Part shown: piece by piece, positions 2,597 to 10,785 of the stretch
Numbering within the stretch: the stretch's first letter is position 1
Layout: each line of letters begins with the position of its first letter
Virus record (IMG/VR): IMGVR_UViG_2778261375_000003
Length of the DNA stretch: 64,000 nucleotides
Reading direction: 5' to 3' (one strand)
DNA from: a virus
Lineage: Duplodnaviria > Heunggongvirae > Uroviricota > Caudoviricetes
The notes under the pieces: generated by a model
Told to the model about the DNA's origin: nothing
What the model saw: the letters and a program-made list of their open reading frames with translations, nothing else
Databases searched by the model: none
Position numbers and translations under genes: made by a program

Positions 2597-3406
2597 TTAT
2601 TCTTCTGAATTATCGATTACACTGTATTCCCCGGTTAATACAGAGGAGTCTGCCGGATCGATTGTCAGTGGTTCCTTTTCATCCATTGATACTGCACGCT
2701 GGATTTCAATTGAGACAGGCAGGTATTTAAACAGGCGACGAATAGCCGTTTTTTTTGCCATTTCTTCCCAGTGAGTTACCCATGGCCCGTTATTACCAGC
2801 CTTACTCTGGCTGCGCACCAGTTCAATCTGTTTGCGCGTCATAACTTCAAACTGAGTCCCTCCGTCTTTCAGTCTTGCGACAGCATAGACGTGGGTCACT
2901 GGTGCATCTTCGTTTTCTCCCGGGCGGTGTATTAACTTTTCATCAAGGCCAAATTCAAAACTAAACTCGTCACCTTCACGGACAACACGGGCTGACAGGC
3001 TGGCGATTTGACCAGAACGGCGAGCCAGATCAATCATGCCGCGATAACCAATGATTAGCTGAACGTTCTTTTTACCGCTCTTTTCGTTTTTATTACCAAA
3101 AGGCAGTAAATATGCGTGGCCGAGGGCGCTACCTGGCTCAAGGCCGAGCTGTGAACACTGAACGATCGCACTGACAAAACTCATGGTGTCACAGTTTCCT
3201 AGCGCCGGAACCTTACGAATTTCTGTGGTGGCGATACGTATCATTCGTTCAGCCGTCATATGGCGTGGGAGAGCTGCTGCCAGTTGCTCTTTCATTGATG
3301 GCTGATTAATAAAGCTGATCACGTCGTTATTTTTTACTGCTGCTGGTGCACGGTTTCCCTGAGTTTTTTGCAGATCGGCTTTTGCGATTGGTGGTTGCTT
3401 AGTCAT
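2597..3406 (-). CDS. recT: RecT single-strand annealing recombinase
   Basis: 269 aa from [24 protein letters not shown]...; essentially the Rac RecT sequence as I recall it. Confidence 0.95.
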
Positions 3407-7915: not shown

Positions 7916-8377
7916 CTACTGGTTACGTTTCTTTAGTGCCAGCATGTTCTCGAAGGCTTCCTCGTAGAGCTTGTTTAGTCCACGTAGCTGGTTAAGGAGT
8001 TTGGCTTTTTCTGACGCAGGTAGAATCTCGAAGAGGTTAAGTAACTCAGCCTGTTCTTCATTGACCAGCCTCCATCCTTTGCCTGAAAAGCTATCATCAT
8101 AAGTATCTGATGATCTTACATAATTCATTAAGTCTTTAAGGTCTTCTCGAATGTCCTCTGGTTTTACCTTTAACAGAGCCGCAAATTTTAGCGCAGCGTC
8201 GGTATTTACCGGTATCTTGCCGTTCAGATACTGGCTAACGGTGCCTTGAGATTCGAATCCCAACAACTCAGCCGCCAGCTCTTGAGTCAGCTTCAGCTCT
8301 TTTTTTCTTGCATTCCATGCGGCTTTTAAATTCTTGCTCGCTTCTGGAGTTGCAATCACTTCGCGTGTTTTTTTCAT
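7916..8377 (-). CDS. racR: RacR-like HTH repressor
   Basis: 153 aa with XRE-type HTH (LTQELAAELLGFESQGTVSQYLNGK); divergent from a Cro-like gene; position equals RacR in Rac. Confidence 0.7.
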   Translation of the reverse strand: MKKTREVIATPEASKNLKAAWNARKKELKLTQELAAELLGFESQGTVSQYLNGKIPVNTDAALKFAALLKVKPEDIREDLKDLMNYVRSSDTYDDSFSGKGWRLVNEEQAELLNLFEILPASEKAKLLNQLRGLNKLYEEAFENMLALKKRNQ

Positions 8378-8425
8378 ACATAGAGTTTATTTGTTTTACC
8401 AATATTATCAAAGATAGTCTGACTG

Positions 8426-8454
8426 TTGATCTTTAAAATTAGTGGAGCTAATAT
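8426..8454 (+). promoter_or_regulatory. Candidate pR-like promoter for ydaS-ydaT
   Basis: TTGATC, 17-bp spacer, TAATAT, about 25 nt upstream of ydaS ATG, in the racR/ydaS divergent region. Confidence 0.4.
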
Positions 8455-8478
8455 TTGCTCGAGGCATAACGTAGAAGG

Positions 8479-8760
8479 TTGGCTATGAACTTAAGAGACT
8501 ATTTAAAAGAGAAACATATCACCCAGTTACAGTTTGGGAAGCTAACGGGTTTATCTCAGGTGCATGTAAGTCGAGTGCTGGGGGGCTATGAAAGATTCAG
8601 CCCTGAAAAAGCATTACGTGTTGCTGAAGTAACGAATTTCGAGGTTACACCTCATGAACTCCGGCCTGATATCTACCCGAATCCGACCGATGGTTTACCT
8701 GTTGGATGTAAGGCTAACACACAAAATGCACAGGAGTTGATTCATGAAAATCAGGCATGA
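8479..8760 (+). CDS. ydaS: YdaS-like Cro-type HTH protein
   Basis: 93 aa, HTH (LTGLSQVHVSRVL), divergent from repressor. Confidence 0.7.
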   Translation: MAMNLRDYLKEKHITQLQFGKLTGLSQVHVSRVLGGYERFSPEKALRVAEVTNFEVTPHELRPDIYPNPTDGLPVGCKANTQNAQELIHENQA

Positions 8761-9166
8761 GCACATCGAATCAGTGTTGTTAGCCCTAGCCGCTGAAAAA
8801 GGGCAGGCGTGGGTCGCTAACGCAATTACTGAAGAATATCTGCGCCAGGGGGGCGGCGAATTGCCCCTGGTACCAGGCAAGGACTGGAATAATCAGCAGA
8901 ACATCTATCACCGTTGGTTAAAAGGTGAAACGGAAGCGCAAAGGGAAAAAATTCAGAAACTGATCCCTGCAATTCTGGCAATCCTTCCGCGCGGGCTGCG
9001 TCACCGACTCTGCATCTTCGATACCCTGGAACGCCGTGCATTACTGGCGGCGCAGGAAGCGTTGAGTACGGCAATTGATGCGCATGATGATGCAGTCCAG
9101 GCCGTTTACCGGAAAGCACATTTCAGCGGTGGTGGGTCGCCCGGCGATTCTGTCGTAGTGCATTGA
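8744..9166 (+). CDS. ydaT: YdaT-like protein
   Basis: 140 aa, overlaps ydaS 3' end; length and position match Rac YdaT. Confidence 0.7.
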   Translation: MKIRHEHIESVLLALAAEKGQAWVANAITEEYLRQGGGELPLVPGKDWNNQQNIYHRWLKGETEAQREKIQKLIPAILAILPRGLRHRLCIFDTLERRALLAAQEALSTAIDAHDDAVQAVYRKAHFSGGGSPGDSVVVH

Positions 9167-9210
9167 TTGAAATTAATCGTGCCGGATTGTTTTGTTCGGT
9201 ATCAGTTAAA

Positions 9211-9630
9211 TGTAACGCTGCGAGCGTTACAAGGTGAAAACAAATGGCTTCAAACTGGATAAAGCTCGAGGTTATTACGCCGGATAAGCCGGAAATATTC
9301 AGGCTTGCTGAGATTCTGAATATTGATCCAGATGCCGCATTAGGGAAGGTTATTCGCTTCTGGGCATGGGCGGATCAACAAATGATAGACGGTAATGCAG
9401 ATTGTAACGCTCGCGGCGTTACAAAAAGTGCAATAGATCGCATCACTTTTATGGCTGGTTTTGCTGATGCGTTAATTCAGGTTGGATGGCTGGTCGAAAA
9501 TGACGGTGGGCTTTCTCTACCTAACTTTGAACGTCATAACGGGAAAAGCTCTAAAAAACGGGCGGTTACAAACGAGCGAGTTACAAAAATACGCGAACTG
9601 AAACGAAAAGGTAACGCTGGCAGCGTTACA
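9211..9630. repeat. Three copies of a GTAACGC(N)GCGTTAC palindrome plus one degenerate copy
   Basis: Perfect palindromes at 9211-9231, 9403-9423, 9611-9630 and a degenerate gttaca...gttaca at about 9565-9585; first overlaps the ydaU RBS region, others lie inside ydaU. Confidence 0.8.
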
Positions 9631-10032
9631 CAAATGGATCAAAAAGCGTTACCAGAGGAAGAGGAAGAGGAAGATATAAATACTGATCTCCCCCTAAATC
9701 CCCCTCGCCAAAAACGAGCGTCTAAAAAATTTGAGCCGGAGGCTATTGAGCTGCCCGATTGGTTGCCGGAAACACTCTGGCATGAGTGGGTCCGGTTCAG
9801 GCAGGCATTGCGAAAACCGATTCGAACGGAGCAGGGCGCTAACGGGGCGATACGGGAGCTGGAAAAATTCCGCCAGCAGGGTTTTACACCTGAGCAGGTG
9901 ATTCGACACAGCATCGCCAATGAATACCAGGGCCTGTTCGCGCCGAAAGGTGTTCGGCCTGAGACGTTGCTCCGACAGGTTAACACTGTCTCGTTGCCGG
10001 ACAGTGCGATCCCGCCAGGCTTCAGGGGGTAA
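9244..10032 (+). CDS. ydaU: YdaU-like replication initiation protein (lambda O analogue)
   Basis: 262 aa directly upstream of a DnaC-like gene; carries internal palindromic repeats. Confidence 0.65.
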   Translation: MASNWIKLEVITPDKPEIFRLAEILNIDPDAALGKVIRFWAWADQQMIDGNADCNARGVTKSAIDRITFMAGFADALIQVGWLVENDGGLSLPNFERHNGKSSKKRAVTNERVTKIRELKRKGNAGSVTQMDQKALPEEEEEEDINTDLPLNPPRQKRASKKFEPEAIELPDWLPETLWHEWVRFRQALRKPIRTEQGANGAIRELEKFRQQGFTPEQVIRHSIANEYQGLFAPKGVRPETLLRQVNTVSLPDSAIPPGFRG

Positions 10033-10038
10033 CGGACC

Positions 10039-10785
10039 ATGAAAAATATTGCGACAGGCGGCGTTCTGGAACGCATCCGCCGACTGACCCCGCCACATGT
10101 AACCGCCCCATTCAGAACGGTAGCGGAGTGGCGCGAGTGGCAACTTGCTGAAGGCCAGAAACGTTGTGAGGAGATCAACCGTCAGAATCGTCAGTTGCGG
10201 GTGGAAAAAATTCTGAATCGTTCAGGCATCCAGCCGTTGCACCGTAAATGCTCATTTGCGAATTACCAGGTGCAGAACGACGGCCAGCGATACGCGTTAA
10301 GCCAGGCGAAATCCATCGCCGATGAACTGATGACCGGGTGTACAAATTTTGCGTTCAGCGGAAAACCTGGTACCGGGAAGAATCACTTAGCGGCAGCTAT
10401 CGGGAATCGCCTGCTGAAAGACGGTCAGACAGTGATTGTGGTTACCGTGGCTGATGTTATGAGCGCCCTGCACGCCAGCTATGACGACGGGCAGTCAGGC
10501 GAAAAATTTTTGCGGGAGCTGTGCGAAGTGGATCTGCTGGTTCTTGATGAAATTGGCATTCAGCGCGAGACGAAAAACGAGCAGGTGGTGCTGCACCAGA
10601 TTGTTGATCGCCGGACAGCGTCGATGCGCAGCGTGGGGATGCTGACAAACCTGAACTATGAGGCCATGAAAACATTGCTCGGCGAGCGGATTATGGATCG
10701 CATGACCATGAACGGCGGGCGATGGGTGAATTTTAACTGGGAGAGCTGGCGTCCGAATGTCGTCCAGCCAGGAATTGCGAAGTGA
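10039..10785 (+). CDS. ydaV: YdaV-like DnaC/IstB-type helicase loader ATPase
   Basis: 248 aa, Walker [16 protein letters not shown], Walker B LLVLDEIG. Confidence 0.85.

Follow-up and report, generated by a model that had tools for sequence, protein, structure and literature searches.

Palindromes upstream of and within a Rac-like prophage initiator gene as probable initiator-binding sites and replication origin

The 64,000-nucleotide stretch analysed here, referred to as the window, is the tailed-virus record IMGVR_UViG_2778261375_000003 of IMG/VR. It carries a prophage gene order of the lambdoid immunity/replication type, in which a repressor gene is followed by cro-like, cII-like, initiator and DnaC-like genes (Table 1). 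Three copies of the palindrome GTAACGC-N5-GCGTTAC lie in front of and inside the initiator gene. On comparative sequence evidence, it is probable that the initiator encoded by the prophage itself binds these palindromes as its cognate DNA sites, and that together they constitute the replication origin.

As the sequence-only reading had recognised, the palindromes are spaced at about 200 bp. Exact copies occur three times in the window, at 9212-9230 (site A), 9404-9422 (site B) and 9611-9629 (site C), with start-to-start steps of 192 bp between A and B and 207 bp between B and C. When the outer base pair is counted, sites A and B are perfect 21-mers (TGTAACGC..GCGTTACA), and site C (GGTAACGC..GCGTTACA) is perfect across 19 bp. 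The rest of the 64 kb yielded no further match at two or fewer mismatches, all other matches requiring three. The total of seven matches at up to three mismatches was reached in none of 100 dinucleotide-preserving shuffles of the window. GCGTTAC heptamers are strongly concentrated, with 7 of the 14 present in the window falling inside 441 bp (Poisson p ~1e-13). The earlier placement of one palindrome at the ribosome-binding region and of the others in coding sequence was also accurate: the end of site A at 9231 adjoins a Shine-Dalgarno-like AAGGTGA (9231-9237) and lies 13 nt 5' of the ATG at 9244, and sites B and C fall within the initiator open reading frame. The spacer between ydaT and the initiator gene additionally contains a hairpin with a 9-bp stem (GUGCCGGAU...GUUCGGUAU, 9179-9202), located just 5' of site A and followed by no U-run.

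A scan allowing one mismatch identified three additional half-sites (9392, 9578 and 9646), of which those at 9392 and 9646 had not been noticed before, so that two palindromes and three half-sites are contained in the initiator open reading frame. A degenerate fourth copy of the palindrome had been suggested near 9565; no palindrome was found there, the elements present being the forward half-site GAGTTAC and, ahead of it, a weaker half-site look-alike at 9563-9569. The half-site GAGTTAC, palindrome C and the terminal half-site form a linker cluster (cluster C, 9578-9652; gene offset +334 to +408), the only cluster that holds several half-sites, with steps of 12, 23 and 33 bp. The replication module contains no other repeat array.

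Table 1. Coordinates of the palindromes, half-sites, tract and genes discussed in the text (positions in the window, except for the K-12 Rac repeats)
Feature	Position	Strand	Description
DicA/RacR-like repressor	7916-8377	-	
YdaS/Cro-like protein	8485-8760		
YdaT/CII-like protein	8744-9166		
Site A	9211-9231	none	TGTAACGC-TGCGA-GCGTTACA; ydaT-initiator intergenic spacer, non-coding
Replication initiator gene	9244-10032	+	262 aa; phrog_2509 'replication initiation protein', E 2.5e-89
Left half-site GTAATGC, degenerate	9392-9398	-	1 mismatch; 12 bp before left arm of site B
Site B	9403-9423	none	TGTAACGC-TCGCG-GCGTTACA; N-domain codons 54-60, C-N-A-R-G-V-T
Half-site GAGTTAC	9578-9584	+	1 mismatch; first element of linker cluster
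Site C	9610-9630	none	GGTAACGC-TGGCA-GCGTTACA; codons 123-129, linker predicted to be disordered
Terminal half-site GCGTTAC, perfect	9646-9652	+	23 bp past right arm of site C; adjoins purine tract
Putative DNA-unwinding tract	9653-9690	+	(GAGGAA)3 then GATATAAATACTGATC; codes acidic linker EEEEEEDIN
DnaC/IstB-like helicase loader (YdaV)	10039-10785	+	PF01695, E 5e-20; phrog_50 'DnaC-like helicase loader'
K-12 Rac iteron-like repeats	3010-3085 and 2766-2776 of L086 (NC_000913.3 1418500-1424500)		

The initiator is predicted to consist of an N-terminal winged-helix-like domain (the N-domain, residues 1-122, 9244-9609), a disordered linker (residues 123-157) and an O-like/DnaT-like C-terminal domain (the C-domain, residues ~158-262). 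In an AlphaFold2 model based on a 68-sequence alignment (mean predicted local distance difference test score, pLDDT, of 74.8), residues 10-100 of the N-domain are confidently modelled, two predicted helices (61-68 and 73-80) lead into a beta-hairpin (84-91), the linker scores below 50, and the C-domain is predicted to be helical. According to this model, the codons of site B fall in a low-confidence loop (residues 47-60) and cluster C falls in the linker. Fold searches with the N-domain returned weak matches only, mostly to winged-helix DNA-binding domains; these matches included MarR/RovA, CRP-family proteins, TubR, the ORC2 winged helix, the DnaD N-terminal domain and a plasmid initiator. 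No solved structure of a relative was found by sequence search.

No Pfam model, DUF1376 included, matched the initiator or any of 68 relatives at E <=0.1. The sole NCBIfam match of the initiator, DnaT, reached 16 bits against a cut-off of 201, far under threshold, and no homology to lambda O was detected (BLASTP E 1.3). PHROGs labelled 'O-like' and 'primosomal protein' are matched as well, by the C-terminal half, and the 'O-like' match is confined to that part. Likeness to YdaU of the Escherichia coli K-12 Rac prophage is restricted to residues 139-262, at 81% identity, the N-terminal 138 residues being unrelated. The name ydaU given by the sequence-only reading therefore holds by position and C-domain only, the N-terminal domain being no true YdaU (DUF1376) orthologue. 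In published work, ydaU-W are still counted among genes of undetermined function (PMC11014345).

The N-domain family is large, comprising 6,739 representative clusters at E <=1e-3 and 4,261 at E <=1e-10 in a library of 1.84 billion proteins, and its members are mostly annotated as hypothetical. In some representatives the loop differs (G-N-G-V-S-V-T, for example), which may point to additional forms of the site. The closest N-domains (99%) occur in Shigella flexneri and E. coli records, and 1,723 of 5,426 complete E. coli genomes match positions 8400-10100 of the window, none identically and the best at 97.8%.

Conservation of the sites was assessed in 71 distinct genes, obtained from 80 IMG/VR loci gathered by protein similarity together with annotated phage homologues. 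Site B is perfect in 69 of the 71, site C in 65 and site A in 32, and all 32 relatives with a perfect site A (at -32 to -44) belong to the enterobacterial '+160' sub-group. The 14 arm bases are identical throughout, and the 5-bp spacers vary, with 37 different versions. The half-sites recur as well: the position of the degenerate GTAATGC is occupied by a perfect GTAACGC in most '+160' relatives, the GAGTTAC element corresponds in several relatives to a perfect GCGTTAC with an unchanged offset (+334), and the terminal half-site is kept in relatives out to Xanthomonas phage CP2.

Furthermore, the codons within the arms are frozen. Across 19 non-redundant homologues, glycine is written GGT in 17/17 cases, valine GTT in 17/17 and asparagine AAC in 17/18, as against a codon entropy of 1.4-1.9 bits at other conserved glycine and valine columns of the same homologues. 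These data bear on the idea that the protein needs a repeated peptide motif, x-N-A-x-x-V-T, and that the DNA symmetry is incidental. Sites B and C do share a reading frame in the window and both encode N-A-x-x-V-T. However, synonymous positions in the arms are invariant, and site C occupies another frame in many relatives, being read as G-N-A-x-S-V-T (frame 1) in the window and as V-T-L-A-A-L (frame 0) in the group of Klebsiella and TL-2011b. Site A, moreover, is non-coding, and disorder is predicted for the peptide segments that the sites encode. Frozen synonymous positions, the frame shift of site C and the non-coding site A together exclude a peptide-level explanation, the probability of which is negligible. 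On the strength of these comparisons, selection on the arms acts on the DNA and not on the peptide.

Two IMG/VR relatives (L040 and L074) have a site-B loop (codons ~50-75) that is longer by 15-19 residues, and the extra DNA holds added GTAACGC half-sites, translated as 'SNA', 'GNS' and 'SVT'. This suggests that binding-site duplication drives insertions in the protein loop.

The half-sites next to the palindromes keep a 12-bp register. In relatives, site B typically shows the order 'left, left, right', and cluster C typically shows either 'left, left, right, right' or 'right ... left, left, right ... right'. This arrangement is relevant to a second explanation, in which the palindromes would act as RNA or extruded-DNA hairpins tuning translation, stability or termination of the mRNA. 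Each site folds into a stable hairpin of 8-9 bp (z -4.7 to -5.5), that of site A stands directly 5' of the Shine-Dalgarno sequence, and both arms change together between sub-families with pairing kept. Within the GTAACGC class, however, the arms are invariant despite saturated synonymous sites, so that the sequence is conserved and not merely the pairing. In addition, unpaired direct half-sites accompany the palindromes on the 12-bp register, the + strand shows no T-run after any of the sites, and the single terminator-like match is antisense and within chance expectation. A hairpin function is accordingly regarded as very improbable.

The association of the palindromes with the N-domain was examined by a reverse test, in which public collections were scanned by DNA pattern alone for two palindromes 171-201 bp apart. 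Among the IMG/VR matches listed, 80 out of 80 have a gene for the N-domain (37-100% identity) in which the offsets of the sites are unchanged; the initiator's C-domain is shared by only 37 of these loci. All 24 loci from a one-genome-per-species collection likewise encode the N-domain (32-99% identity), and they include Planctomycetota, Comamonas, Polaromonas, a Thiodiazotropha metagenome-assembled genome (MAG) and one Oscillospiraceae MAG. The motif search in related loci, which the sequence-only reading had proposed as a check, thus found the paired palindrome only together with the initiator N-domain (104 of 104 listed loci). Outside Enterobacteria, the identical paired palindrome accompanies N-domains of 32-57% identity in Planctomycetota (L213, L217, L218, L221, L222 and L229) and Betaproteobacteria (L220 and L236). 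The Oscillospiraceae MAG (L226) is the single Firmicutes case and may reflect MAG contamination. Judged from these loci, the recognition code is unusually rigid over large phylogenetic distances.

Diverged N-domains are paired with different palindromes. Phages epsilon15 (L212), Klebsiella BUCT711 (L004), Ralstonia RPZH3 (L210) and Pseudomonas phiPSA1 (L211) carry GTCCGC-N7-GCGGAC at +65 and at about +341 to +365, and Ralstonia phage Raharianne (L209) carries GTAGACG-N6-CGTCTAC at +153/+166 and +369. Both diverged sub-families keep the two-cluster layout, with an (AGAGA)n tract after each. Three palindrome classes are thereby distinguished, one per N-domain sub-family.

The K-12 Rac prophage shares the C-domain and has ydaS, ydaT and ydaV in the same positions; its N-domain is annotated as DUF1376 and belongs to different PHROGs from that of the window. 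No GCGTTAC and no GTAACGC palindrome occurs in 6 kb of K-12 Rac, and its ydaU linker carries GATGTTCAAAC-type repeats of its own. The exchange of N-domain and iterons as a module is known for lambdoid O genes. Altogether, the earlier proposal that the palindromes are operators or origin iterons bound by a dimeric protein, with the O-like initiator as the first candidate, is supported by these comparisons: the arms are frozen and the spacers drift, the sites are exclusive to the N-domain, change with its sub-family and vanish when it is swapped, as in K-12 Rac.

The sequence-only reading had also named the adjacent regulators as candidate binders, and the palindromes could in principle be operators of the YdaS/Cro-like, YdaT/CII-like or RacR/DicA-like proteins, whose genes are close by and each of which is a dimeric or tetrameric helix-turn-helix protein. 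For YdaT, the operator has been defined experimentally as (A/T)TGATT-N6-AATCAA, the box being ATGATT-N6-AATCAA in Rac and TTGATT-N6-AATCAA in CP-933P (PMC9986795, PMC11879457). Because this published operator differs from the palindromes, YdaT is excluded as their binder. A YdaT-box-like sequence, TTGATT-CATGAA-AATCAG, is present in the window at 8737-8754, across the ydaT start codon (ATG at 8744), indicating that the prophage keeps a YdaT autoregulatory site separate from the palindromes. The mapped RacR and YdaT operators also lie elsewhere, either between racR and ydaS or at the start codon of ydaT (PMC11879457). Furthermore, K-12 Rac possesses racR, ydaS and ydaT and yet lacks the GCGTTAC arm, and the palindromes are kept in Xanthomonas, Ralstonia and Planctomycetota elements with other annotated neighbours, and in phages whose record annotation, from which neighbour identities were taken, shows no sign of these regulators. 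Binding by a neighbouring regulator is consequently disfavoured and is considered highly improbable.

The sequence that follows cluster C is the least stable 40-mer of the replication genes (about 9649-9690), and its top strand is purine- and A-rich with a strong A-over-T skew. The same succession is found in every sub-family: the last half-site adjoins a purine tract, (GAGGAA)n or (AGAGA)n, which is followed by a short AT-rich run and then by C-tracts. Strand opening would be expected at this tract. The region is also rich in GATC (Dam) sites, with five in 360 bp (9325, 9373, 9436, 9637 and 9685) versus 3.6 per kb window-wide. Many enterobacterial relatives also have the GATC at 9637, which separates site C from the terminal half-site (GATCAAAAAGCGTTACC), and a link of SeqA or Dam to the GATC sites of the origin region is possible.

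The layout can be compared with the lambda origin, where the O protein binds as a dimer to a minimal unit of 19 bp, an imperfect inverted repeat, and where two iterons and an AT-rich tract are enough for unwinding (PMC7466680). In lambda, four 18-bp dyad iterons are annotated at O offsets +348 to +432, with an A-rich purine tract after them. Like lambda ori and its Stx-phage variants with six iterons, the present system has dyad sites of 18-19 bp inside the initiator's own gene. The linker cluster, at +334 to +408, occupies nearly the same offsets as the lambda iterons, and in both systems the sites stand in the segment that joins a type-specific DNA-binding domain at the N-terminus to a C-domain that recruits, or here would recruit, the loader. 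A purine- or A-rich tract after the sites, the gene order cro-like, cII-like, initiator, loader, and the exchange of N-domain and repeats as one module among related phages are further common features. On the other hand, the initiator shows no detectable likeness to lambda O, its loader is DnaC/IstB-like and not lambda P, and each of its sites is a perfect 7+5+7 palindrome. Of the three, two stand alone at steps of ~200 bp, one in the N-domain coding region and one 5' of the gene, whereas the four lambda iterons are adjacent at a spacing of 20-24 bp, a tandem array that the prophage lacks. The tract after the sites also differs in being only moderately AT-rich.

In the mechanism proposed for the prophage, N-domain dimers would each take one 19-bp site, with one monomer per arm of 7-8 bp and arm centres 12 bp apart, and further monomers would occupy flanking half-sites in the same 12-bp register. 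The linker cluster would serve as the core, with opening of the adjoining purine tract. The C-terminal O-like/DnaT-like domain would then recruit the DnaC-like loader YdaV, its presumed partner, together with host DnaB. Sites A and B would assist by bridging to the core through initiator oligomers, by exerting negative feedback on initiator expression, or both; the upstream site A and the intra-domain site B are probably auxiliary or autoregulatory.

A regulatory role could also be the whole function, in which case the palindromes would be autoregulatory operators only, through which the initiator or another factor represses or roadblocks the initiator-loader operon in its transcription or translation, the true origin being located elsewhere. 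Site A adjoins the ribosome-binding site, and the sites lie inside a transcribed gene, where a bound dimer could stop RNA polymerase. In iteron plasmids, Rep dimers autoregulate through inverted repeats. Nevertheless, fewer than half of the relatives have site A, whereas nearly all have B and C. Cluster C resembles the lambda origin in its position and in the purine tract beside it, and the replication module offers no other repeat array. A promoter at site A was rejected after a consensus scan, which found no sigma-70-like promoter near it and a single site in 1.8 kb, away from 9211-9231, versus 2.2 expected, and which is a weak test. Autoregulation alone is therefore judged distinctly unlikely. 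As an added function, it is compatible with initiation at the linker cluster, and sites A and B may well perform it.

Several points weigh against the palindromes being an origin. Across relatives, they lie 182-264 bp apart, in contrast to the closely packed tandem iterons known from characterised lambdoid origins. The distances between the palindromes show no helical phasing (Rayleigh p >0.6), so that a rigid loop is not supported. Tolerance of the coding sequence for sites (loop, linker, leader), and not helical geometry, seems to set the ~200-bp spacing. The purine tract is only moderately AT-rich (~52-58% in 60-bp windows) and is less extreme than the intergenic DNA of the immunity region, and no DnaA-box or IHF consensus was found near the sites. 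Autoregulation could be all that the sites are used for, and the prophage itself may be replication-defective. A literature search gave no description of the motif, as an origin or otherwise.

Among other known systems, the K-12 Rac module shares with the window the module position, the C-domain, the C-tract after the linker and the downstream ydaV. The two differ in the N-domain, unrelated in sequence, and in the repeats, which are of the GATGTTCAAAC type in place of the GTAACGC palindromes. An active origin, oriJ, has been reported for Rac (PMC3945230), and no sequence-level map of it was found in the accessible literature. The repeats of K-12 ydaU, (C/G)AGATGTTCAAAC or inverted, are clustered in the linker just 5' of the same AT-rich/CCCCCCTAAATCCCCC segment, and an isolated GATGTTCAA occurs at +149. 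These linker repeats are a candidate for the sequence-level location of oriJ, with a similar two-part layout.

Iteron-plasmid Rep systems, as generally known, resemble the present one in having a winged-helix initiator, inverted and direct half-sites and a possible double use in initiation and autoregulation. They differ in that one small winged-helix-like domain is predicted here in place of WH1-WH2, in that the sites lie in coding sequence, and in that no promoter was found to overlap an inverted repeat by the weak consensus scan. In phage P4, ori and crr are two separate clusters of initiator sites, both of which are needed; unlike these, the clusters described here are ~200 bp apart and not kilobases. 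Among plasmid records, only two, both circular and phage-like, were noted to contain the initiator and palindromes, in E. coli (CP088505.1, L238, 52 kb), with no recognised replicon type, and in Pusillimonas sp. T7-7 (NC_015459.1, L239, 41 kb). They are suggestive at most of episomal replication by the module.

A more speculative extension, with some but only a small chance of holding as a whole, is that of a conserved two-part origin (three-part in enterobacterial members) obliged to sit in the initiator open reading frame. Dimers bound ~200 bp apart would be bridged, opening the purine tract and blocking transcription of the initiator, which would make initiation self-limiting. Half-site duplication would repeatedly have written extra 'xNA' and 'SVT' into a surface loop, the DNA element thus shaping its own binder, with 7-bp arms identical from Enterobacteria to Planctomycetota.

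An origin of dimer-bound dyad repeats within the initiator gene is a textbook principle from lambda. Apparently new is an initiator family unrelated to lambda O and lacking a Pfam model, for which recognition would rely on a perfect 7+5+7 palindrome in a dispersed two- or three-part layout, with one site in the coding region of the DNA-binding domain itself. The identity of the arms across distant bacterial lineages and the three covarying specificity classes also appear to be new, and the literature search found no description of such palindromes, layout or classes. The locus represents a clean case of protein-coding sequence constrained by a DNA signal. It provides a testable origin and initiator-site code for widespread Rac-like prophages of E. 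coli and Shigella, the region being matched in about one third of complete E. coli genomes. The three palindrome classes would allow direct annotation of origins in many phage and prophage genomes, and the pairing of site and N-domain suggests simple specificity-swap experiments. The findings have a bearing on prophage induction and replication, on phage-plasmid maintenance and on incompatibility.

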